Shown in pieces: positions 801 through 58,305 of a stretch of 58,305 nucleotides of DNA. A program made the translations under genes and the position numbers. Source of the stretch: a virus; IMG/VR virus record IMGVR_UViG_3300025597_000015, positions 1 through 58,305 of that record. One strand, 5' to 3'. The notes beneath the pieces were generated by a model, which was given only the letters and a program-made list of their open reading frames with translations, searched no databases and was not told the origin of the DNA. The stretch's first letter is position 1; each line of letters begins with the position of its first letter.

Positions 801-1073
801 GTGTTACTAATAACAAGTGTGAAGATTTTCTAATAGTATATATAGGTTTGTGTTAATTTATTTTAGTTTACTTTTATAAAAATCGCCTTTATAATATAAA
901 AATATAAATGGCGAAAAATATAAATTTTTAAATAGATGTCGTTATTTAAGCCACTATTTTTGGATCGGAAAGTGGTTTTTCAAATCATTCACGTCGATAA
1001 CGTCGAAGATATAATTTATTATATATACATATTATAAATAAACTATATATAATCTCAAATAAAATAACTATTC

Positions 1074-2764: not shown

Positions 2765-4258
2765 ATGGTAAAAGATAAAATAAAAACATTACCATCTATA
2801 GATAATCTTTCTTCTGATGCAATGAGATATATGCAAACAGTTATTAAAGGAAAAAATGATCCTATTTGGTTTATAGAAAATGTATTAGATGTAAAAATGT
2901 TTCCAAAACAAGCAGAAATAACACGGGAATTTTATAAACACAAATATCTTAATGAAAAGACACCATATTATAAAACTCTTGTTTTGGGATTGGGAATGCG
3001 TAGTGGCAAGACGGCATTAGGTGGTATGTTAGCAGCATATGAATTATTTGATATAATGACTCTTGATTCCCCATCAGAATATTATGGATTATTAAAAAAT
3101 CAACCCATTATGATCCCTGTTGTCGCTCCTTCCGAAAGACAGGTAACAGATGGTGTTTTCTATAATGTTGCTAATATTTTAGAAAATTCTGAATGGATAA
3201 CTTCTTGGACTGATTTACAATTTAGATCGGAAGAAATATTCTCTCCTTCAAAGCATCTTGCAATTAAACCATTTAGTTCTTGGGCGACTAGTGGAAGAGG
3301 TGCCACATCTAAATGTGTTATATTGGATGAGTTGGATCTATTTGAAACGACGACATCAAAACGTGGAGCAACGGAAGTTTATAATGCACTTACTAAATCT
3401 ACTGCAACATTAGGAATGGATGGACATATTTTTGCATTATCTTCTCTTATGTCGCCAACTTCTATTATGTCAACTCTCATTAAAAAGGCAGAAATGGATA
3501 GGGAAGCAAATCCCACAACATTTAAAACTCTTGCTTATAAAATTCCAACATGGGAAGCAAATCCGCATATTTCATTTAAACAACTTGAAGAAGAATTTAA
3601 ATTCGATATGCCTACATTGTGGCGAGATTACGGTTGTAAGCCCGAAATGTGGAATGCACTCGAATTTCCACGCGGAGTCAATTTAAAACAATTTCCAAAT
3701 GCATTATTAGAACCAAACTGTGCAGCACCTAACAAAATGCGTGTTATGGCAATTGATCCCGCTGTGCGTAATGATTCATTTGGTGTTGCGGTGGGATATA
3801 AAACAGAAGATGGAAAAATTATTGTTGATGGGGCAACTAAATTTAGACGCAAAGATGGAGAACCAATTATTAAACCATCTGATATTAAAAACTTTATTAA
3901 CTCGATGTGTAATAATTTAAATGTTTATGCATTAGTATTTGATGTATGGATGTTTCCCGATATTATTGAAGATGCACAGTTACAGGGATTAATAACAGAA
4001 AAGCATATTGTATATAAAGAAGATTACGATCTTGTAAAATCTTTAATGGATGCCAATAAACTTGACGTTGTTTATGATACAGAATTAAAGATTGAATTTG
4101 AACAATTAGAAGTTAAAGGTGGCACAAAGCCCCGTGTTGACCACCCAGTATCTGGTGGAAAAGATATCGCTGATTGTGTTGCAAATGTTGTATGGTATCT
4201 TTCAAGTCGTGAATCAATAGAACCAGTATATAATTTTACAAGTATAACAACATTTTAA
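2765..4258 (+). CDS. terL: terminase large subunit
   Basis: 497 aa. Walker A GMRSGKT, Walker B ILDELD, C-terminal RNase-H-like nuclease segment AIDPAVRNDSFGV. Upstream of the portal gene. Confidence 0.9.
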   Translation: MVKDKIKTLPSIDNLSSDAMRYMQTVIKGKNDPIWFIENVLDVKMFPKQAEITREFYKHKYLNEKTPYYKTLVLGLGMRSGKTALGGMLAAYELFDIMTLDSPSEYYGLLKNQPIMIPVVAPSERQVTDGVFYNVANILENSEWITSWTDLQFRSEEIFSPSKHLAIKPFSSWATSGRGATSKCVILDELDLFETTTSKRGATEVYNALTKSTATLGMDGHIFALSSLMSPTSIMSTLIKKAEMDREANPTTFKTLAYKIPTWEANPHISFKQLEEEFKFDMPTLWRDYGCKPEMWNALEFPRGVNLKQFPNALLEPNCAAPNKMRVMAIDPAVRNDSFGVAVGYKTEDGKIIVDGATKFRRKDGEPIIKPSDIKNFINSMCNNLNVYALVFDVWMFPDIIEDAQLQGLITEKHIVYKEDYDLVKSLMDANKLDVVYDTELKIEFEQLEVKGGTKPRVDHPVSGGKDIADCVANVVWYLSSRESIEPVYNFTSITTF

Positions 4259-5941: not shown

Positions 5942-7264
5942 ATGGTAATGTTTTCAGAACCCATTGTATGGCGTAACACCAAAGTTCTGAAAGTTTCTGG
6001 TATCACTGTTAAGCCCGGTGTTTTTACGAGTAGAGAAGGTAGAGAAGTTCCATTTAACACAGAAATGTGTAAATCTCTTTTTTCTAATTTTGAATCCTCT
6101 ACTCCATCTTATCTTACACATGACGACCGTGATTCATGCGGATATATGTATAAATTGGGATATGATGAAGAAACTGATACAATTCACTATGAAGGTTTCG
6201 TGTTTGATCCTGATAAAGCAGACCGTATTGTAAACGATGGTTTTGATAGTGTTTCTCCTGAAATTGAAGTAGATAAGATTGATGGGAAAATTACTGGTGG
6301 TAAAATTACTGGTATTGCTTTTGTTAGAAATCCAGCAATTAAAGGAACTACGGTGAATAAAATGTATGTTTCGTTTTCTACACCAACGCATACTTGGGAT
6401 TATAATAAATCCGATTCTTCATGGTCTAAACCAGCATTAAAAGATTTTACAGAAAAATCTTGGGAAGAATTATCTAATACTGAAAAACGTGAAATTGCTG
6501 CTCATTTTGCTTATGCAGTAAATATGCCTCCTGCTTCTTTTGGAGATTTAAAGTTTCCTCATCACGATCCTAAAACTCATGATGTTGTGTGGAAAGCAGT
6601 TGCTAATGCAATGGCACGTTTAAATCAGGCAGATATTTCTGATGCTGATAAAAAGGCTGTATATAATCATTTAGTTAAACATTATAAGGAGTTTGAAAAA
6701 GAACCTCCCGAAATGTTTGATGATGGATGTGTAAATAATATGGTAAATACAAGTTATACTATGACTTCGACAAATGGATCTTATTCATTTGTTCCAATAA
6801 CTGTTTCTTCAACTGGTGTTAATTTTAGTGAACCAGATGCTAAAGATTTGAAGATTAAAGAACTTGAGAATAAGATCGCATCGTTTGAGGCAGCATCCGT
6901 GATTGTTCCTCCGGTTGTTGTTCCTGAAGTACCTAAAGCACCAGAGATGCCAAGGGATCCTGAAGTTGATTATAAATCAAAATATGATTCTATTATGAAG
7001 AATCAGATTGATTCAATTGAAGGAGAATTAAAAAATCTTGGTGTGAAAGGTATTGAAAGTATTGGTAGCAATTTAGATTCTGAAACAAGATATAATATTC
7101 TTCGTGCATTTAAAGAATCGTTTGTTATCAATAAACCTACTACAACTCCGCCTGAAACAATTCAGACGCAGCCAGTGGGTGAATCAAAAGAACAGAAAAT
7201 TGAAAAACTTATGAAGGAAAATGGTATTGATTCTTCGTATAAAAAATATATAAAGGTGAACTAA
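5942..7264 (+). CDS. prohead protease / scaffold fusion (putative)
   Basis: GGTGAT SD. The N-terminal ~150 aa resemble a prohead serine protease (ITGIAFVRNPAIKGT). The C-terminal half is charged and coil-like. Lies between portal and capsid genes. Confidence 0.55.
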   Translation: MVMFSEPIVWRNTKVLKVSGITVKPGVFTSREGREVPFNTEMCKSLFSNFESSTPSYLTHDDRDSCGYMYKLGYDEETDTIHYEGFVFDPDKADRIVNDGFDSVSPEIEVDKIDGKITGGKITGIAFVRNPAIKGTTVNKMYVSFSTPTHTWDYNKSDSSWSKPALKDFTEKSWEELSNTEKREIAAHFAYAVNMPPASFGDLKFPHHDPKTHDVVWKAVANAMARLNQADISDADKKAVYNHLVKHYKEFEKEPPEMFDDGCVNNMVNTSYTMTSTNGSYSFVPITVSSTGVNFSEPDAKDLKIKELENKIASFEAASVIVPPVVVPEVPKAPEMPRDPEVDYKSKYDSIMKNQIDSIEGELKNLGVKGIESIGSNLDSETRYNILRAFKESFVINKPTTTPPETIQTQPVGESKEQKIEKLMKENGIDSSYKKYIKVN

Positions 7265-7265
7265 T

Positions 7266-7688
7266 ATGTCAGGTGGATGGTTAGCAGGTGTTCAGTCTCC
7301 GGGTGTTTCTTATACTCTTAAGACTGCCGTAACGAATGCAGGAACTCTTGTCAAGAAAACCACAGTTGCTGGTGAAATGGATACTTGTGGTGCTGGTGAT
7401 AAGCCCGATGGTTATACTATGGGTACTACTTATGATGCCTTTGGTGTTGCACAGGCTGGTGTAAAGGGCGCGGTGCTTCCTCTTATTGAAGGCAATATTA
7501 TCGAAGTTCCTCTCCTCTCTACTAATGCAGAAATTTCAGTTAACGATGAACTTGAAACAACTGCTGGTGGAACTGTTGATAAGAAATCTACTGCTGGTGA
7601 GATTGTTGGTAAGGCTGAAGAAGCAAAGGGCGCAAGCACTGGTGGATTTATTAAAATTCGTGTGAATAAATATACAGCAAGTGCATAA
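7266..7688 (+). CDS. head decoration-like protein (putative)
   Basis: 140-aa Gly/Ala/Thr-rich ORF between the scaffold and the major capsid gene. Confidence 0.45.
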   Translation: MSGGWLAGVQSPGVSYTLKTAVTNAGTLVKKTTVAGEMDTCGAGDKPDGYTMGTTYDAFGVAQAGVKGAVLPLIEGNIIEVPLLSTNAEISVNDELETTAGGTVDKKSTAGEIVGKAEEAKGASTGGFIKIRVNKYTASA

Positions 7689-7699
7689 GGTGATTTAAA

Positions 7700-8575
7700 A
7701 TGACTACAGAAAAACTTAATTTTGGTGTAACTTCTTCAGATTCGGATATTGCTCTTGAAAATATTCTCAAGGAAATCGTCTACCAGAAGGCAGATGAAAT
7801 GCTTGCTGGAAAGCAGGCAATTCCGATGAAGTCAACACCCGGTCTTGACTATAAGTTTGTTATTCCTGAAAACTGGTATCTTGAAGCAGAGGAAATCTCT
7901 GAAGGTTCCCGTGCAAATATCAAGAATATGAAAACTTTTGAGATTTCGGGTTCTCTTAAAAAGTATCAGATTCCTATTTTCATGAATGATGAAGTTAAGG
8001 CTCGTCAGATTCAGAATGCACAGATGCAGATTTCGCTTGATGCGGCTGCTTCTGGTCTTGCATGGAAGAAGGATACTGAAATCTTTACTGCTCTTTCTGC
8101 TGGTGCAGGGGAAACTATTTCTGCAACGGCACAGTGGGGTGCTAATGGCTCTGATCCTGCAACTGATATTGCGAACGCAGTTGGTAAGATTCTTGAGAAT
8201 ACTACCATCACGGATTCAGAAATTAATAACATTGCATATTTCTATCCTGCAAAACTCTTTGGACATACTGCAAAGCCTCTTCAGATTGGTGACGTGCAGG
8301 AGTCTCTTCGTGCATGGGTAAGTCGTGAGTTTGCAATCAAACTGGTTCCAACTCGTCAGTTAACTACAACTGGTCTTGCAATTGTTAATACGCCTCGTAT
8401 GGGGTGCCATTATACTCATGATGGTTCTGCCATTCAGGGCGTAGAACAGTATCGTGAGGCTGGAGTCGGTGATGGTTTTATTTTAACCCAGTACTTTAAG
8501 AGTGTTATTATTCCCACTGTTAAAGGAGGTTCGACCACTAAATATATCGTTAAGACAACTGGTTTAGATTCTTAA
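7700..8575 (+). CDS. major capsid protein (HK97-type gene order)
   Basis: 291 aa, AAGGTGAT SD, positioned after protease/scaffold, followed by a hairpin and T-run. Confidence 0.7.
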   Translation: MTTEKLNFGVTSSDSDIALENILKEIVYQKADEMLAGKQAIPMKSTPGLDYKFVIPENWYLEAEEISEGSRANIKNMKTFEISGSLKKYQIPIFMNDEVKARQIQNAQMQISLDAAASGLAWKKDTEIFTALSAGAGETISATAQWGANGSDPATDIANAVGKILENTTITDSEINNIAYFYPAKLFGHTAKPLQIGDVQESLRAWVSREFAIKLVPTRQLTTTGLAIVNTPRMGCHYTHDGSAIQGVEQYREAGVGDGFILTQYFKSVIIPTVKGGSTTKYIVKTTGLDS

Positions 8576-8593
8576 ACCAGTAAATAATTTTTT
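8559..8593 (+). terminator. hairpin (CTGGTTTA/TAAACCAG, 8 bp) plus a T-run after the capsid gene
   Basis: Stem at 8559-8566 and 8573-8580; T6 at 8588-8593, rather far from the stem. Confidence 0.35.
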
Positions 8594-8625
8594 GGTGATA
8601 AACCGATTAAATTAGGAGAAACAAT

Positions 8626-9036
8626 ATGGCAATTATAATTCCATCCCTCATTTTACGAGTTCAGGCTATATTGTCTGATCTCCCCGATAATCTAATTAGT
8701 GATGAACAGATATATATTGATTTAAAATCTGCAAAAATATATATAGATTCTATTAAGCGTGATGCTTATTCTAATGATACTTTTGAAGAAGAAGCACTTG
8801 TAAGACTTGGTGCTTATTTATCTTATACAAATTATACTTCACTTGCAGAACGCCAACTTGGTACTCTCCCCCAATCTACAGATATTAAAATGGTTGCACT
8901 TCGACGCAATGCATTAATTTATTTACGTCAGATGTCTGATTTTAAGATTAATGATGATTTATCTGTAGATGATACTGCGGCAGAAAAGTCTTATGCAGTT
9001 ACCATTGCTGCTGCTCCAAGTGTGTTCAGTGATTAA
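8626..9036 (+). CDS. head-tail connector (putative)
   Basis: 136-aa ORF immediately after the capsid gene; call is by position. Confidence 0.45.
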   Translation: MAIIIPSLILRVQAILSDLPDNLISDEQIYIDLKSAKIYIDSIKRDAYSNDTFEEEALVRLGAYLSYTNYTSLAERQLGTLPQSTDIKMVALRRNALIYLRQMSDFKINDDLSVDDTAAEKSYAVTIAAAPSVFSD

Positions 9037-27078: not shown

Positions 27079-28499
27079 TTAATTACATTTACTCCAACCA
27101 CACGATTTACACACCTTACAGCCCGATTCTTTAACAATGTTCATTCCACATTCTGGACATAATTCAAATTTTATATTTCCATGTTCATCTATTGTCCCGT
27201 GTGTTTCAATAGATATATCGTTGTTTTGCGATAATATCGGAGAGTTATCAGTGATAATCATCTCCTCAATACTTCTTCCAATAATATCTGCACAAGACTT
27301 ACCATCACATTTTCCAAGTTTAAATTGATGATAAGCATTACTACATGTTATTTCACGACATGTTTTTACAATCTCACTTATAGGAACTCCATGTCGCATT
27401 TCTAAACAAATGTGATTAGACAATGCTTTTAATAAAGAGTCACAACCACCATCTGTATTTTGAATACAAATTTCATACGGTTTATTATCTTTAAATCCCA
27501 TAACAATATAAAGATTACCACAACCTGTTTTAACCTTTACACGCTCGGAACATTTGAGCGTTCTTGGTCGCTTTTCTGGAATATCTTTAAAACATTCAGA
27601 AATTTTAACTGGTTCGGGTTTCTTTAATGCCAGAACTTCATTTTCTCTACTGCCATTCCTATAAATTGTAAGTCCTTTGCAGCCCTGTTGCCATGCAAGT
27701 TCAATTATAGTTTTAATTTGTTCTTTAGTGGCATGATTCGGGAGATTGATTGTTTTACTAATAGACATATCTACAAATCTCTGAAATGCTGCCTGCATAT
27801 AAACGTGCTGATGTGGTGAAATATCCATTGCATTTTCAAAGAGTATTCTAAATGTTCTTGGTAAATTTTCTAAATCCTGAATTGTGCCTTTTTCATGACA
27901 ATGTTTAATTACAGAATCATATGCTTTTTGAAATTGTCCTTCTGGACGAAGATTTCTGGATTCAAGTTCTTTTCGCAGTGCAGCATCAAATAACGGATGC
28001 ACAATATAATGATCTCCCAATGTATCATGACGTGTATAAACCCAATTAAATACAGGTTCGATACCAGAAGAAACCCCCGCAATAAGACTAATCGTGCCAG
28101 TCGGTGCTATAGAATTAAGAGAAGCATTCATTCGATTATGAATAATATTTGGATTTTTACCAAGTTCTCTTGACACTCTATAAGAATGTTCAGCAATAAA
28201 CATCATTATCTGTTGTGCTTGATCTAATGCATTTTGACTATTATATGGAATTCCCATTTTGATTAATGCATCATGGAATCCCATAATACCCAATCCAATC
28301 TTTCGTGTGCGTTTGGATGCTTCTGCAATTTCGGGCAGTGGATATTTATTTTTATCAATTACATTATTAAGAAACACAATCGCACATTCAATCGTGTGTT
28401 TTAATTTAATATAGTCAATTTTACCATCTTTTATATGATTTGAAAGGTTGATACTACCCAAGTTACAACTTTCGCCGGATGTTAAGAGGGCCTCTCCGC
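27079..28499 (-). CDS. nrdJ: class II (B12-dependent) ribonucleotide reductase, exon 2
   Basis: After splicing it begins (C)GEALLTSGESCNLGSINL. C-terminal zinc ribbon CPECG...CKVCKSCG. The frame joins exon 1 exactly (697+1421 = 2118 nt = 706 codons). Confidence 0.85.
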
Positions 28500-28772
28500 C
28501 TTGTAGTGAGGCATTTTGTTACAGCAACAATGCTTCGTTGCAGGTGCGATCATTTCTGTCGCACTCTCATACTTTCATATGAGATCGGACTATATCATCA
28601 ATGTCGCGTCTATAGTCTCTGAACCTTCATCTCATTGGGATGCTTGGCTGCTGATTGCCCAATTATTTCTATTTTTAAAACATTCACGTTTATCATTTCT
28701 GATTGCGTTGTAGTTAGAAATACTTTAGGGTGTTCCAGCAATTTACGCGATTTTAAATCCGCACGGAGTTTT
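28500..28772 (-). ncRNA. group I self-splicing intron, 273 nt, no internal ORF
   Basis: On the minus strand: P AAAUUGCUGGAA (28733-28744), Q AAUCAGCAGCC (28647-28657), R GGUUCAGAGACUAUA (28611-28625), S GAUGAUAUAGUCC (28587-28599). P pairs with Q and R with S. The guide CUCCGU-GCGGAUUU (28755-28768) pairs with the 3' exon GCGGAG (P10) and the 5' exon AAAUCCGU (P1, U.G at the splice site). The intron ends in G. Confidence 0.88.
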
Positions 28773-29469
28773 ACGGATTTGTGTTCAACTCGCCGTTCTC
28801 TGGAGCAGGATTGTCTTTTTCAATTGTGTCCTTAAATAAAATACCCGGTTCTCCATTCTTCCAAATACCATCAATAATTAAATCCATGATTTCTGGATCT
28901 GGATTTTTCATAAATTCATCTGTAAGTTTTACAGAAATATTGAAATTCGAGAGTTCTCCTTCTTTGTTTTTACATACAATAAAATCTTTAATTTCTGGAT
29001 GTGTAATATCTAAACATCCCATCATGGCTCCACGCCGAAGCCCACCTTGTTTTACAACATCGGTCATTGTGTTAAATACTTCCATGAAGGAAACTACACC
29101 AGAAGATACACCTTTGCGATTTCCTACTTTGCTTCCTTTTGGTCGAAGTTTACTAAAGTTGAAACCAACTCCACCCCCTCGCGCGAATATCTTTGCTGCA
29201 TTTTTATTTGCATCAAAAATACTATCAATTGAATCTTCTACATCCAAATAAAAACAAGCAGAGAGCATAGGATTATCTGTACCTGCATTCATCAAAGTGG
29301 GCGAATTGGGTAGAAAATCCTTATTAACCATTAAATTATAAAATTCTTTTTCTTGTTCTGGACTATTTGCAATATATTTTGCCACACGATGACAAATCCC
29401 ATCCCAATCGTTTTCCCCATCTACACAATAACGTTCTTTAAGAATTTTATCAACATACTCACTGGACAT
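28773..29469 (-). CDS. nrdJ: class II ribonucleotide reductase, exon 1
   Basis: Ends ...ENGELNTNP plus the first base of the Cys codon. ATG at 29469 after GGGGA. The unspliced frame hits TAA immediately. Confidence 0.85.
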
Positions 29470-29629
29470 TACCATTCCCCAAATCACGAACAAATTGAAT
29501 CAATTTTTCTTTTTCTTCTTTGGTTAAATTATTAATTTTAACATCCACATCATAAAATTCTTTTGATTTTTTCTCATCATCGAACCAATAATAATGTCTA
29601 TGTTCATTAATCCAATAATCGTGTGGCAT
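29459..29629 (-). CDS. small hypothetical protein (56 aa)
   Basis: TAATG overlap with the upstream gene; overlaps the nrdJ start by 11 nt. Confidence 0.4.
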   Translation of the reverse strand: MPHDYWINEHRHYYWFDDEKKSKEFYDVDVKINNLTKEEKEKLIQFVRDLGNGNVQ

Positions 29630-39164: not shown

Positions 39165-39237
39165 AGTCATTGATGGGGATTGAACCCATTAACTCCTGCT
39201 TACAAGGCAGGCGCAGTTCCATTACTGCTCCAATGAC
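39165..39237 (-). tRNA. tRNA-Thr (anticodon UGU)
   Basis: Hand-folded canonical 73-nt cloverleaf. Acceptor GTCATTG/CAATGAC, D loop TAATGGAA, anticodon loop CTTGTAA, T loop TTCAATC. Confidence 0.85.
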
Positions 39238-39246
39238 AATATATGA

Positions 39247-39339
39247 TTCTCGCATATATTACCTGTGCATAGGCAATATATTGTTGATAATAATACACTA
39301 TTATCTCCTGCGGATATTACTACAGACTCGCAACGAGAA
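39247..39339 (-). ncRNA. 93-nt spacer element closed by a 7-bp helix
   Basis: UUCUCGU pairs with GCGAGAA. The helix includes a U.G pair that is valid only on the minus strand. Internal hairpin GATAAT/ATTATC. Does not fit a cloverleaf. Confidence 0.3.
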
Positions 39340-39340
39340 A

Positions 39341-39413
39341 TACGCGAGAAAGGACTTGCACCTTAATTCTTTCCGTTATAAGCAGAATGCACTACTATAT
39401 ATGCTACTCGCGC
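39341..39413 (-). tRNA. tRNA-Ile (anticodon UAU), non-canonical elbow
   Basis: 73 nt with canonical arm lengths. Acceptor GCGCGAG/CTCGCGT, anticodon loop CTTATAA. The T loop is TGCAAGT (G at position 55) and the D loop ATATAGTA lacks GG. Confidence 0.75.
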
Positions 39414-39437
39414 AAAATACATATATATGACTTTTTT

Positions 39438-39512
39438 AATAATGGTACAGATTTGAACTGTACTCCCTGCTGATGCAGGTGTGCTAACCAAATTACACCA
39501 GTAATCCATTAC
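39438..39512 (-). tRNA. aberrant tRNA-like gene or pseudo-tRNA
   Basis: Good acceptor (GTAATGG/CCATTAT), D arm (GTGT-AATTTGGTTA-GCAC) and T arm (TACAG-TTCAAAT-CTGTA). The anticodon arm CCTGC-ATCA-GCAGG has only a 4-nt loop, and 5 extra nt follow the 5' acceptor strand. Confidence 0.45.
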
Positions 39513-39559
39513 CGATTAGGTAGAATTTATCTAGAAAATTCATTAAAGTCTAAACCTGA

Positions 39560-39643
39560 TGCGTGAAACAGGCATTGCACCTGTGAACTCCTACGAGAAT
39601 GCATCTTAAGTGCATCGGGTTTGTCTATCTTCCCTATTCACGC
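39560..39643 (-). tRNA. tRNA-Leu (anticodon UAA), class II, non-canonical elbow
   Basis: 84 nt. Acceptor GCGTGAA/TTCACGC, anticodon loop CTTAAGA, long variable arm. The T loop is TGCAATG (G55) and the D loop AAGATAGACAAA lacks GG. Confidence 0.8.
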
Positions 39644-54777: not shown

Positions 54778-55022
54778 CTTACAATAATTTGATACATATT
54801 ATTATCAATCATAGCATAAATTAACCATTTTTTGCCTCTACACACTCTATAAAAGAATGGTGCTATAGATGGATCATCAAAATCAAACCATTGAGTTGTA
54901 ATTTCTTTTAAAGTATATCGTTTAAATGGTTCGTCCTCATCTGTTATTATAAAATCTATTAGTTTTGTATTTTTATACAAATTATATTTCATTTCAATCA
55001 TCCTCTGAATGAACAAATTCAT
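54774..55022 (-). CDS. hypothetical protein
   Basis: 82-aa ORF. Confidence 0.55.
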   Translation of the reverse strand: MNLFIQRMIEMKYNLYKNTKLIDFIITDEDEPFKRYTLKEITTQWFDFDDPSIAPFFYRVCRGKKWLIYAMIDNNMYQIIVR

Positions 55023-55257
55023 GACATTCTTTACATAATGGAATTGTTCGCTGTAGTTCTCTTAAAACAGCATTCCACGAAAATGTTTTTCTTAAAAAGT
55101 CATGCATACTTAAACCATCCTCAATTCTATGAAATGTTATTGGTGAATCGTTAGAATTATAACGACCACATATAACACAATATTGTTTACATTTATATTC
55201 TTTATATTTTTCACGAATCTTTATTCTTTTTTCTTTTTTCAACATTTTACTTCTCAC
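54994..55257 (-). CDS. HNH endonuclease (small)
   Basis: CVICG...TFHRIEDG...CKECHEFVH. Confidence 0.65.
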   Translation of the reverse strand: MRSKMLKKEKRIKIREKYKEYKCKQYCVICGRYNSNDSPITFHRIEDGLSMHDFLRKTFSWNAVLRELQRTIPLCKECHEFVHSEDD

Positions 55258-55415
55258 ATTAATAAAATTTTTCCATCTTCTTTGTTAATCATTTGTCTTA
55301 ATTCACACATTTTACCTTTAACAAATGGACATTTTTCGCAGTCAATTCCCATTTGAAAAAATTTACAGTTTCCATTTTTTGAAAAAGCCTTTTTAAGAAT
55401 TTTAATGTCTAACAT
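55254..55415 (-). CDS. Cys-rich small protein (53 aa), family-related
   Basis: ATG at 55415 after GAGGT; ILKKAFSKNGNCKFFQMGIDCEKCPFVKGKMC resembles the N-half of the paralogue family. Confidence 0.45.
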   Translation of the reverse strand: MLDIKILKKAFSKNGNCKFFQMGIDCEKCPFVKGKMCELRQMINKEDGKILLM

Positions 55416-55806
55416 CGCATTTAACCTCATAATGAATACCATTGTCCTTACACGCACATGAATCAGAATACATAAATGGATACATTTGAGAACCGATATT
55501 AAAATCAGTCCAATTATTTTCATATGTCAAAGGCTGTCCACATTGTGTTATTTTACAATTTGGATTGATTTTAAAACACTCATCAAAAAATGCACCATAA
55601 ACATGCCAACATGCCGCATTAATATGCCTGCCCGATGGCGAAATTCGAGAACCTTTTTTACGAATATCACTGACCTTTAATGTAACGATAATTTTGTTTT
55701 TGTCAGAATCAAATCTTTTAAAAAGAATATTGTTATCAAAAAATCTGTTAGTGTTATGTAATGCTGTTGCTACATCCTGTTCAGTTAAACCTCTAATGTA
55801 AACCAT
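55402..55806 (-). CDS. hypothetical protein
   Basis: 134-aa ORF. Confidence 0.55.
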   Translation of the reverse strand: MVYIRGLTEQDVATALHNTNRFFDNNILFKRFDSDKNKIIVTLKVSDIRKKGSRISPSGRHINAACWHVYGAFFDECFKINPNCKITQCGQPLTYENNWTDFNIGSQMYPFMYSDSCACKDNGIHYEVKCDVRH

Positions 55807-55807
55807 T

Positions 55808-55963
55808 TTAGATCACCATTGGAACCTCAATATTCATTCCGTGCGTTTTAAAGCATTCAGATACAAGTGATTTAACAGGAATTTTCGTTCCTATTACAGT
55901 CATAAAGTCCGCGCCTTTAATATACCCGATATGGGTTTTTCCTTCAATGTCTTTAACGATCAT
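55808..55963 (-). CDS. small hypothetical protein (51 aa)
   Basis: ATG at 55963 after AGGAG; the track's N-terminal extension runs through a structured leader. Confidence 0.5.
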   Translation of the reverse strand: MIVKDIEGKTHIGYIKGADFMTVIGTKIPVKSLVSECFKTHGMNIEVPMVI

Positions 55964-55989
55964 GTTCTTAACTCCTGAAATTTGTAAGA

Positions 55990-56017
55990 GTATTACCCGG
56001 TTTGACCCGGATAATAC
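55990..56017 (-). promoter_or_regulatory. 10-bp interrupted hairpin in the leader (GTATTACCCGG / CCCGGATAATAC)
   Basis: Read directly; lies 27-54 nt upstream of the ATG at 55963. Confidence 0.4.
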
Positions 56018-56026
56018 CCAAGAGGG

Positions 56027-56051
56027 TAACGTGCATATTTTTAACGTGCAT
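56027..56051. repeat. direct repeat TAACGTGCAT, two copies (56027-56036, 56042-56051)
   Basis: Exact 10-mers 5 nt apart in an intergenic region. Confidence 0.6.
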
Positions 56052-56129
56052 CCATATCGGGACACACCAAGAATTTTAAATGGATTTGAACCATTTAGAA
56101 CCCGCACTTAAAATGGTCACTTTATGCTC

Positions 56130-56161
56130 TATTAGAAACAATTTGTTTATTTTAGAAACAA
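56130..56161 (-). promoter_or_regulatory. TTGTTTCTAATA motif, copy 3 (56130-56141), plus the variant TTGTTTCTAAA (56151-56161)
   Basis: Exact 12-mer and a near copy in tandem, upstream of the gene block that starts at 55963. Confidence 0.45.
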
Positions 56162-56215
56162 TGCACCAATTTTATGCATAACTATACATTTTGAAATTGA
56201 AAGTACTTTAAAATG

Positions 56216-56410
56216 CTATTTTGTATTTAAAAATACTTCTACCCAGTCGGGATCTTCGCTGATCAATTTTGCAGTTTTTTCCATTTCGGCATGAATAACC
56301 TTTAATCGTACCATTAAAACATCCTCTTCTCTTGACAATTCCCTGAAAGTTTTAATCATTAATTCAGTCTCACACATTTTAATCAATTTCCAATCTTGCA
56401 AGTTCATCAA
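56216..56410 (-). CDS. hypothetical protein
   Basis: 64-aa ORF; start is uncertain (56407 or 56377). Confidence 0.5.
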   Translation of the reverse strand: MMNLQDWKLIKMCETELMIKTFRELSREEDVLMVRLKVIHAEMEKTAKLISEDPDWVEVFLNTK

Positions 56411-56609
56411 TTAACTCATGTGTTTGACATAATACACAATGAAACCCATTAATAGATTTTTCTTTATACATTATACAATTGCCTTTTGCGCAGTAGTTTT
56501 CGCCGTTATCAAGTTCTTTTTTACCTTTATATGTAAGGTAGTTTTTGCATTTATGTTCATTATACAGTTCTTTAAATTCCCATTTTAATTCAGTAAAATT
56601 TTTAGCCAT
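56379..56609 (-). CDS. small Cys-rich protein
   Basis: 76 aa; GGTGA SD. Confidence 0.55.
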   Translation of the reverse strand: MAKNFTELKWEFKELYNEHKCKNYLTYKGKKELDNGENYCAKGNCIMYKEKSINGFHCVLCQTHELIDELARLEID

Positions 56610-56622
56610 TTAGATCACCCAT

Positions 56623-56775
56623 TTAAGCATAGATTACTTTTTCATCCATGACACTTTCATAATCCTCAAGTGTACAATTATAGACGTTTATAAAGTCCTT
56701 TGAATCATGTTCATTTACGAGTCCATACACTATAAGACCTACAATTTCGCGTTCTATGAGTTCTTTGATTTCCAT
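56623..56775 (-). CDS. small hypothetical protein (50 aa), first gene of the minus-strand arm
   Basis: ATG after AAGAGGGA; stop lies 13 nt before the next ATG; shorter than the track cut-off. Confidence 0.45.
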   Translation of the reverse strand: MEIKELIEREIVGLIVYGLVNEHDSKDFINVYNCTLEDYESVMDEKVIYA

Positions 56776-56789
56776 TTTGTTCCCTCTTT

Positions 56790-57700
56790 TGCCTTTTACG
56801 GCATGAATCCTTTTTCGTTTGACCGAAAAAGAATCCGATTAACACCCGTCCGCCGGTTATACTGTGGTTAAGTCATAACCGGAACTTTTGGGTTTTTTCG
56901 TTTGGTCAACATTAACTGCGATAGATGAATCTATCCTGCATGCTCGTTTTTGATCTATTCAGTCCTAGAAATTTAGAACCTTATTGATCGTGAGCACTAT
57001 GTATCCTTCCTTCCGGAAAGAAGATTTAGTAAGAACCTTCCGGCTCTAGTCTGTCATCGTTGTAAGTATTTTCCCGAAAAACTATTTTCCGTTCTGTGGT
57101 TACTTCCGGAATTTACCTCACCATTATACAGTGGTATTTATTTGGGTTCATTTCGCATTTTATTGAGTCATTACGGATTATCTCTAACGACAGGTTATCC
57201 TGTCGAATAGCCTTATCCCGCTCGTCCTTGCGATTTTACTTCACAATTTTTGCAACTGTATAATTGTGTGTTATTCGCCGGATCTAGCCAGCATGAGTTT
57301 TCGATCCTTTTAATCTATACGGATAACCGTATGTCTCTGATTAAGGGATCTCCAGACTTTTGTAATCCGGGGATTGCTTACTAGCCTATACAGGGATTAA
57401 CATCAATCCTTTGTCCTATCCGTGTAACCCGGTTGATTAGGTATTGATGTATTACCGTTCCAGTCTTTTTGGGGTGTGTGCTCACCGTGGTCAACCCCAA
57501 GTCATGACGAAATTAACCTATCCGGGTATCCCGGTAGAGTTTCCGCTGACTTGATGAGCATTGCACTATTGCACATCTGCGGCTGGCTCGTCTCATATCG
57601 CACACCTGACTATGAGGATTTTACTGCGATACTCACCGACTCGATATACTATAGTTTTACTCACTTCTATATAAACCTGTCGAAATTGTATCAAAAAATC
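56790..57700. ncRNA. candidate large structured RNA or long structured leader (G+C-enriched, ORF-free, hairpin-dense island)
   Basis: No credible ORF. Hand count gives 31/60 G+C at 57481-57540, against 7/60 at 46261-46320. Perfect helices at 56810-56831, 56853-56882, 57188-57205, 57316-57333 and 57522-57534. The strand is not determined. Confidence 0.4.
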
Positions 57701-57909
57701 TAGTAAATTTACTTGTCTTAACTAAAATAAAGTTTCATTAAGTGGAAATAACATCAAATTAGACTCTATTTCCAAAAAGGAGACCAGCGCGTGAAGATTT
57801 TTCTTTGGTCTCAATAATTAGATTGATGTTGCCGCCCGGCTTGCAAATTTGGTATATGTACTATACTAAGTACTTAGTATATGGATTAACACGGACATGA
57901 TAACATCAA
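57399..57909. repeat. AACATCAA / TTGATGTT iteron-like motif cluster
   Basis: Exact 8-mers at 57399-57406, 57750-57757 and 57902-57909 (plus orientation) and 57823-57830 (inverted); a 7/8 copy at 57444-57450. Confidence 0.55.
57862..57881. repeat. 20-nt perfect palindrome TATACTAAGTACTTAGTATA
   Basis: Read directly. Confidence 0.85.
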
Positions 57910-58036
57910 CAGCAATGCCATTTCCCTTCATTCTGTAGCCCGATCTCACAATAATTGGTATTATCCCATGTGCCAAGCGCAAAGCGCGACAAAAAGAGTA
58001 TGTATAATAATAGTAAATAAAAATAAATTAAGAGTA

Positions 58037-58146
58037 TTTTCTTCTTTTTTCTTTGCTACTTTCTTTTTTCTTCTTTTAGAATTCAAATTAGATTCTAATT
58101 TAAAATTAAACGTTAGTTTTTCTTTCTTTGCTTCTTTCTTTCTTTT
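58037..58146. repeat. two polypyrimidine (T/C) tracts flanking a 6-bp inverted repeat
   Basis: 58037-58077 and 58117-58146 are almost pure T/C on the plus strand; TAGAAT/ATTCTA lies at 58077-58097. Confidence 0.7.
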
Positions 58147-58178
58147 ATTACATATATATAATTATAATATATTATAAT

Positions 58179-58305
58179 ATTATATAATAATATATAGAAA
58201 AACAAGTAAACTTTAATAAAAACAAGTAAAAATAAGTAAATATGGGTATCATCAAATCAGTATTTTAAAAAAATAAAAATTAGAAATACTGATTATCGAC
58301 CTTGA
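58179..58305. repeat. exact terminal overlap, copy 2 (identical to 1..127)
   Basis: See copy 1. Confidence 0.95.

Follow-up and report, generated by a model that had tools for sequence, protein, structure and literature searches.

The 58,305-nt stretch of viral DNA analyzed here (IMG/VR record IMGVR_UViG_3300025597_000015, positions 1 to 58,305; hereafter the window) carries, between its two divergent gene blocks, a hairpin-dense island of about 0.9 kb at positions 56790–57700. We put at about even the chance that this island is an untranslated, highly folded 5′ leader, approximately 0.87 kb long, of the leftward early operon of a phage. The island does not code for protein, folds better than its composition predicts, has syntenic counterparts in related phages, is bordered by a conserved promoter-like block, and holds no terminator-like site. 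A structured leader of about 1 kb was among the options offered in a preliminary description made from the sequence alone, and it is the option that best fits an interval running from a promoter-like block to a ribosome-binding site with no terminator-like site.

The contig is circular, with a terminal overlap of 127 nt and a unit length of 58,178 nt. Once the circle is closed, a noncoding arm of about 2.5 kb lies between the start codons of the first leftward gene (56775) and the first rightward gene (1074); the preliminary description had proposed this gap, and both the circularity and the two start codons were verified. The island forms the left 0.9 kb of the arm, which separates the leftward and rightward gene blocks. 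The phage terminase has many metagenomic homologues, and three related lineages, designated L003, L005, and L091, have the whole arm on one contig; their terminases are 70%, 64%, and 48% identical, respectively, to that of the window.

The earlier impression that the arm lacks a credible ORF (open reading frame) held for the island by every approach used. Its largest standard-code ORF, sought within positions 56776–57760, comprises 75 amino acids (57476–57703, GTG start). Recoding of TGA, TAG, or TAA, including retranslation under genetic codes 4 and 15 as had been proposed, yielded no frame spanning the island, and no Shine–Dalgarno sequence plus start codon within it would yield a peptide longer than 10 amino acids. 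The tested ORFs of the island and of its syntenic counterparts matched no PHROG family. Likewise, six-frame tblastn with stop-to-stop segments revealed no protein-level conservation between the island and the syntenic regions of the relatives. The sole cross-matches linked L003 and L005 and occurred in several frames and on both strands, and therefore reflect nucleotide similarity rather than coding. Together, the alternative codes (4 and 15, and TAA recoding), the short ORFs, the PHROG comparison, and the six-frame searches rule out hidden coding.

Folding was evaluated by comparing 890 nt of the island with 60 dinucleotide shuffles, and two coding segments of equal length served as controls. 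As the preliminary description had anticipated, the island folds beyond chance on both strands, giving z-scores of −4.6 (plus strand) and −7.0 (minus strand) versus values of +1.0 to −2.2 for the coding controls. Segments of 200 nt inside the island (n = 8) have mean z-scores of about −1.9 (plus) and −2.4 (minus), compared with a genome background (n = 67) of −0.84 and −0.68, respectively. This excess reflects local hairpins that are overrepresented steadily along the sequence, and no single domain stands out. Stems in the island are short (6–13 bp, with loops of 3–14 nt), and uninterrupted stems of at least 8 pairs number 39 in eight related regions versus 22 expected. The five helices listed in the preliminary description are all present as written, although the leftmost is actually a 13-bp stem; this hairpin lies 20 nt upstream of the Shine–Dalgarno sequence and is not followed by a U-run. 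A 6-nt long-range pairing that had been suggested between 56842 and 57472 proved no better than chance. The individual hairpins are given in Table 1.

The relatives retain a strongly folded, noncoding stretch at the same position. Read from left to right, L003, L005, and L091 share a layout in which the first leftward gene is followed by approximately 0.8–0.95 kb free of ORFs and then by a conserved block, beyond which lie AT-rich 'tatagtata' palindromes, CTT-rich repeats (in the window, L003, and L091), and further conserved blocks that precede the first rightward gene. The distance from the promoter-like element of the conserved block to the first AUG is 866, 824, 934, and 880 nt in the four lineages. 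The ORF-free stretches have z-scores of −7.5 (plus) and −8.2 (minus) in L003, −7.1 and −9.6 in L005, and −5.1 and −4.7 in L091, and four more distant relatives, whose boundaries are less exact, range from −3.2 to −6.7 on the minus strand and from +0.1 to −3.9 on the plus strand. None of blastn, six-frame tblastn, or an nhmmer profile detected sequence similarity between the island and the ORF-free stretches of the relatives. A blastn search of the island against 153 loci returned only a weak 69-nt match, located at the L091 promoter block, and an nhmmer profile built from the 5′ part of the L003 and L005 leaders found nothing in the window or L091 leaders. Because the relatives fold far better than shuffled sequences and share no sequence with the island, foldedness is conserved at this position and sequence is not. 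Conservation among relatives thus extends to position, length, and foldedness, but not to sequence shared with the window island. The L003 and L005 stretches have one 64-nt block and scattered similarity in common, and in both a helix of conserved sequence (UAGG...CCUG) encloses, at the same position, a hairpin of unrelated sequence.

At its right edge, the proposed leader is bounded by the promoter-like block of Table 1, which has a single exact copy in the window. When the four lineages are aligned, this block reads, on the minus strand, CGA(C/A)AG(G/T)..TA.ATA, then about 17 nt, then (T/C/G)ATAGTA, and an nhmmer profile of it recovers 4 of 4 lineages with E values of 1e-14 to 3e-25. TTTATA-16-TATAGT (57675–57648) is the only promoter-like site that the promoter scan places at this edge. 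At the left edge, the local fold leaves the Shine–Dalgarno sequence of the first leftward gene unpaired. A consensus scan identified 0 terminator-like sites in 56000–58305. Sliding z-scores fall sharply at the start codon of the first gene and, in the window, L005, and L091, are back to background near the promoter block.

These boundaries bear on the possibility that the island is a nonfunctional spacer, that is, decayed or fast-turnover intergenic DNA whose hairpins arose from template switching or quasi-palindrome correction rather than by selection. Such an origin would suit the complete loss of similarity between relatives whose terminases are still 64–70% identical, the lack of a shared motif or consensus fold, and the mosaic nature of phage early regions. 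However, four lineages retain z-scores of −4.7 to −9.6 and a length of 824–934 nt, and the structured zone is sharply bounded at functional landmarks. Other noncoding parts of the arm fold much closer to background, with 200-nt segments to the right of the island having mean z-scores of about −0.7 (plus) and −1.1 (minus) by our own averages. Moreover, the G+C content of the window island is above the genome mean, which is the opposite of what decay in an AT-rich genome would give. We therefore consider a spacer unlikely.

The preliminary description had left the strand undecided. Several cues weakly favor the minus strand, from which a leftward leader would be transcribed. The minus-strand z-score is below the plus-strand z-score in 7 of 8 lineages. 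Unpaired bases are 47–55% A on the minus strand in the four lineages (55% in the window), compared with 40–46% U on the plus strand, and A-rich unpaired bases are usual for structured RNAs. GNRA and UNCG tetraloops number 8 on the minus strand versus 2 on the plus strand; shuffled sequences have 3.6, and about 4% of them reach 8. In addition, the hairpin at 57006–57023 contains a U·G pair that is valid on the minus strand only, the plus strand having a C·A mismatch at this place.

If the island is a leader, host RNA polymerase would start at the sigma-70-like promoter (−35 at 57675–57670, −10 at 57653–57648) and transcribe leftward. Approximately 866 nt would fold cotranscriptionally into short stem-loops, one after another with A-rich linkers between them, and the polymerase, meeting no terminator, would then proceed to the ribosome-binding site and the AUG (56775) of the first early gene. 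Long ribosome-free RNA is normally a target of Rho and of 5′-end-dependent nucleases. Dense structure could let such an RNA exist by leaving no free C-rich RNA for Rho loading, and could protect the early mRNA from nuclease attack at its 5′ end. The C/G ratio of the leader RNA is 0.81–0.93 across lineages (0.86 in the window), and no rut-like stretch, C-rich and G-poor, was found in the leader. The leader would probably be cis-acting, influencing how strongly or when the early genes are expressed, with selection keeping foldedness and length rather than sequence: because shielding of this kind needs dense folding and the absence of C-rich single strands, foldedness would be kept while sequence drifts.

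A number of observations weigh against this interpretation. Transcription of the region, its strand, the start of the transcript, and the purpose of the structure are all matters that we infer. The promoter matches consensus at 9 of 12 positions, and promoter-like matches in the region are not above chance (14 versus 9.8 ± 3.1). Foldability is significant on both strands, and wobble pairs in clean stems do not separate the strands (35 minus-valid versus 29 plus-valid). The four leaders yield no consensus structure (alifold energy of −0.7 kcal/mol), and their predicted domain layouts differ. The strain variants, both those of the window phage (L274 and L275) and those of L091 (L293 and L295), show 100% identity over the island and thus offer no covarying positions. 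Beyond the leader, the whole noncoding arm of L003 is mildly structured, and the left part of the L091 region holds a 107-amino-acid opposite-strand ORF called by the gene finder, which has no PHROG match. The enrichments in G+C, CCGG, and GGAUA described below are confined to the window lineage. Finally, shielding against Rho and nucleases accounts for the folding that a long leader must have, but not for the existence of so long a leader. That the length is conserved points to some additional role, be it in timing, in regulation, or as the precursor of a separate RNA.

The island is not a member of any described RNA family. When all 4227 Rfam 15 models were run with cmscan on both strands, neither the gathering score nor a threshold of E ≤ 10 yielded a match in 56500–58305. 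The models include those for GOLLD, ROOL, OLE, group II introns, RNase P, tmRNA, C4, and phage leader elements. The syntenic regions of L003, L005, and L091 were also without Rfam matches, and a blastn comparison of the island with 50,697 phage records and 72,556 plasmids was negative. An ORF-less group II intron was considered and rejected, since RF00029 does not match at E ≤ 10 and the island lies upstream of a gene, not inside one, at the same place in all relatives.

The preliminary description had also raised membership in a class such as GOLLD (RF01998) or ROOL (RF03087), which the island resembles in being noncoding, phage-borne, highly folded, and of a comparable size class. This assignment did not survive the Rfam search. 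Unlike those RNAs, the island has no covariance-model match to E ≤ 10, no tRNA neighbors (the only tRNAs of the genome lie at 39165–39643, about 17 kb away), and no conserved core, its sequence being unconserved in relatives. It also has the appearance of local hairpins in series, with no demonstrable long-range architecture.

The remaining option of the preliminary description, a new large RNA, is supported by foldedness only. In one version of this idea, a large trans-acting RNA of a new, fast-evolving class stands alone or is released by processing from the head of the early transcript, where it would serve as a scaffold or as a decoy or sponge for a host factor that binds RNA or senses double-stranded RNA. 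Size (0.82–0.93 kb) and strong foldedness are retained in four lineages, loops are A-rich, GNRA tetraloops are in excess on one strand, and the window copy is enriched for GGAUA (7 versus 1.5 expected) and CCGG (10 versus 2.9 expected). That phages can carry RNAs of this size is evident from GOLLD and ROOL (PMC12286853). Nevertheless, no 3′ end signal precedes the first gene, and the relatives have no shared sequence or consensus structure even though the adjoining promoter block can be aligned. Known ornate RNAs, in contrast, retain conserved cores. When a shared binding motif (such as a CsrA-like GGA) was sought, no k-mer was enriched in all four leaders. Nor were antisense targets found in the rest of the genome: complementarity of at least 14 nt to the island is absent, and the longest exact match on either strand is 13 nt, which is at chance level. 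With the Rfam result added, we assign a trans-acting RNA a low probability.

The same searches bear on immunity RNAs derived from leaders, like those of P4 (CI) and P1 (c4). This candidate was rejected, as there is no C4-type Rfam match and no complementary stretch of at least 14 nt elsewhere in the genome. Phage early and immunity leaders include the P4 early-operon leader (CI RNA), the P1/P7 c4 leader, the lambda nut elements, and the HK022 put elements. The proposed leader would be like all of these, an untranslated, folded RNA between an early promoter and the first early gene that acts on its own operon. However, those leaders span 70–400 nt, compared with about 870 nt here, and have defined conserved elements, namely, boxA/boxB, put stem-loops, and CI or c4 with complementary target repeats. 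The island has neither an Rfam match nor such a target elsewhere, and its sequence is not conserved. A second comparison is with the RNase III hairpins and 5′ stabilizer stem-loops of phage early mRNAs (the T7 R0.3 site and the SP82 5′ stabilizer), where the stability or processing of a polycistronic early transcript is affected by hairpins in its untranslated head. Those are single hairpins of 30–60 nt, whereas 13–20 hairpins fill about 870 nt in the island.

Alternatively, the island might act at the DNA level, with inverted repeats in single-stranded or supercoiled DNA serving as accessory signals of an origin (priming for the primase–polymerase (prim-pol) and family B polymerase) or as a signal for DNA entry or pausing. 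The arm coincides with the minimum of the cumulative GC skew, AT-rich direct repeats and palindromes adjoin the island at 58000–58305, and the phage encodes both a family B polymerase and an NrS-1-like prim-pol. The foldability of both strands and the symmetric wobble counts also speak for such an element. Several near-full-length contigs of relatives end inside the arm, so genome ends or repeats may lie there. A precedent is the injection-stop (iss) region of T5, a large ORF-free stretch near the first-expressed genes that is rich in inverted repeats and palindromes and has a cis role in DNA entry (bioRxiv 10.1101/866236). However, the organization of the T5 region is conserved across T5-like phages and includes 8 DnaA boxes and repeat families (10.1101/866236), whereas the island has no sequence conservation, no internal direct-repeat families or iterons, and no DnaA-box cluster, only a single near-match to TTATCCACA. 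Cruciform extrusion is unlikely given such short stems and 3–14-nt loops, the strand cues (z-scores, A-rich loops, and tetraloops) favor one strand, and the origin-like AT-rich repeats sit outside the island. A DNA-level role is therefore also improbable in our estimation.

The composition of the island is distinctive within the window. Its G+C content is 0.412 compared with 0.320 for the genome, and the most G+C-rich 900-nt segment of the genome (0.417) is the island. The preliminary description took this enrichment to be shared only with RNA genes. Its hand counts (31/60 and 7/60) are exact and the enrichment is real, but the signature is not limited to RNA genes, since coding stretches at 1826–2750 (0.41) and 7251–8675 (0.416) are equally G+C-rich. 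The density of CCGG is 11.0 per kb in the island versus 0.45 elsewhere, a 24-fold difference, and the island contains 7 copies of TATCC on the plus strand versus 1 of its reverse complement GGATA. Recurring TTCCGG segments had likewise been pointed out, and CTTCCGG is indeed clustered, with 3 of its 4 genome copies inside 57010–57109. The relatives, however, lack the CTTCCGG, CCGG, and TATCC enrichments, and the islands of L003 and L005 have G+C contents at or below the means of their loci. The motif excess seen only in the window may represent a lineage-specific binding site or may be mere stem composition.

Table 1. Coordinates of the proposed leader, its hairpins, and flanking features.
Feature	Position	Strand	Basis
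Proposed hairpin-dense untranslated 5′ leader, ~866 nt, ~13–20 local stem-loops, A-rich linkers	56776..57641	−	ORF-free; z-scores; local fold; 5′ end (~57641) placed from the −10 element
Promoter-like block: CGACAGGTTTATATA (57668–57682), −35-like TTTATA (57675–57670), 16-nt spacer, −10-like TATAGT (57653–57648)	57648..57682	−	Promoter scan; four-lineage alignment
Shine–Dalgarno AGAGGGA	56781..56787	−	Read from sequence; 5 nt upstream of the AUG of the first leftward gene; unpaired in local fold
First leftward early gene, 50 amino acids, no known family	56623..56775	−	ORF list; called as gene on strain-variant contigs L274 and L275; no PHROG match
Most stable local hairpin, 13-bp stem GGAUUCUUUUUCG-GUCAAA-CGAAAAAGGAUUC	56807..56834	−	Inverted repeat; local fold
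Hairpin CCGGUUAU...AUAACCGG, 8 bp plus extension	56853..56882	−	Local fold; helix check
Hairpin CUUCUUUCCGGAAGGAAG	57006..57023	−	Inverted repeat; local fold
Perfect 7-bp hairpin CGACAGG-AUAA-CCUGUCG	57188..57205	−	Local fold; helix check
Hairpin UACGG-UUAU-CCGUA, 6–7 bp	57316..57333	−	Local fold; helix check
Hairpin CCGGG-AUA-CCCGG	57522..57534	−	Local fold; nested in longer imperfect stem (~57480–57555)
Conserved blocks ahead of the rightward genes	window 905–1000; L003 2268–2350; L005 2795–2880; L091 7425–7480		

The remainder of the arm has features of its own. Approximately 100–170 nt upstream of the first rightward gene, the four lineages share strongly conserved blocks (ATGGCGAAAAATATAAATT followed by AAGCCRCT...) that probably control the rightward operon. 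Within 58040–58150 and 58195–58250, the window contains direct repeats of a CTT-rich polypyrimidine sequence (TTTCTTTGCTxCTTTCTTT), which L003 and L091 have as well, and, adjoining these and beside AT palindromes, AAACAAGTAAA repeats with a spacing of 10 nt. Both kinds of repeat are candidates for origin elements or iterons. Immediately upstream of the putative early promoter, the minus strand can form a hairpin at 57780–57812 with a G+C-rich 7-bp stem (GAGACCA...UGGUCUC) and a 19-nt loop, followed by CUUUUUGG; a U-run occupies 57773–57778. The consensus terminator scan misses this hairpin because its loop is long. The hairpin could serve in leftward termination or as an insulator, or could mark where a small RNA derived from the G+C-richer interval 57800–57990 ends, and the core of the region, CTGGTC..TTTTTG...TCTAAT, can be aligned with L003 and L091.

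Variation among close strains is also localized to this part of the arm. Variants L274 and L275 are identical to the window across 55001–57751, and their 69 differing positions all fall in patches of the remaining arm (57752–57805 and 88–728), specifically at 57752–57768, 88–104, 288–334, 404–444, 491–505, and 563–728. One patch includes a 10-nt deletion, and another is a block swap of ACATCAAATTAGAC to AGACTAAATTGATG inside a GGAAA...TTTCC inverted repeat. This pattern resembles the outcome of mosaic recombination or of swaps in the specificity of regulatory or origin sites, and the patch differences include no clear compensatory pairing. Contigs L001, L002, L284, L285, L287, L294, L296, and L297 end inside the arm, 480–1700 nt upstream of the first rightward gene; two of them are near full length (58.6 and 63.6 kb). 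Physical genome ends, terminal repeats, or a repeat that breaks assembly probably lie in the arm.

The genes that flank the arm fall into a structural and an early block. The rightward block from 1074 consists of structural genes, among them the large terminase (2765–4258), and a tail-tube family was detected in relatives. The leftward block from 56775 comprises about 32 kb of early and replication genes and encodes the family B DNA polymerase, an RNA ligase, the NrS-1-like prim-pol, an AAA ATPase, and a ribonucleotide reductase. The large subunit of the latter is present as two ORFs (28771–29493 and 27079–28461), and a group I intron at 28566–28782 splits the gene (within 27079–29493). Several homologues of the terminase, P0010, P0015, P0060, P0081, and P0083 among them, measure 590–840 amino acids and contain Hint or intein-splicing domains (as well as LAGLIDADG domains), so the large terminase of this phage family has been invaded by inteins repeatedly.

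Further searches for relatives and for a host were largely unproductive. Single-protein scans of viral contigs with a 134-amino-acid early protein and with TerL uncovered no relative, and scans with 16-mers and 18-mers returned only chance matches in unrelated phages. Homologues of the 134-amino-acid protein occur only on short contigs or with a different upstream arrangement, and the contigs bearing terminase homologues P0009, P0010, and P0013 stop inside the arm. A host search by scanning of genome collections found only misbinned contigs of metagenome-assembled genomes. The sequence GGCC has 1 copy in 58 kb versus about 38 expected from composition by our own estimate, whereas CGCG (60 copies) and GCGC (48 copies) are not depleted in the whole window. 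The scarcity of GGCC is a strong avoidance of a HaeIII-type restriction site, and it bears on host defenses.

Untranslated leaders in bacteria and phages usually extend for tens to a few hundred nucleotides and have recognizable elements. If the island is indeed an early-operon leader, a leader of nearly 0.9 kb that occupies the same place at the same size in four lineages, with selection acting on its foldedness but not on its sequence, would be an unusual beginning for an early operon. It would also offer a handle on how long ribosome-free RNA evades Rho and nucleases at the onset of infection. In a more far-reaching form, which we regard as doubtful, the early transcript of these uncultivated phages of about 58–63 kb from anaerobic digesters and landfills would be headed by a fast-evolving structured RNA class of about 0.85–0.95 kb, whose size and folding are selected while its sequence turns over, and which could be a decoy for a host nuclease or sensor that recognizes double-stranded RNA or hairpins. 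Should the island instead be a passive spacer or a DNA-level element, it would be of local interest only. More generally, excess folding energy combined with synteny can flag candidate functional RNAs where homology searches fail.

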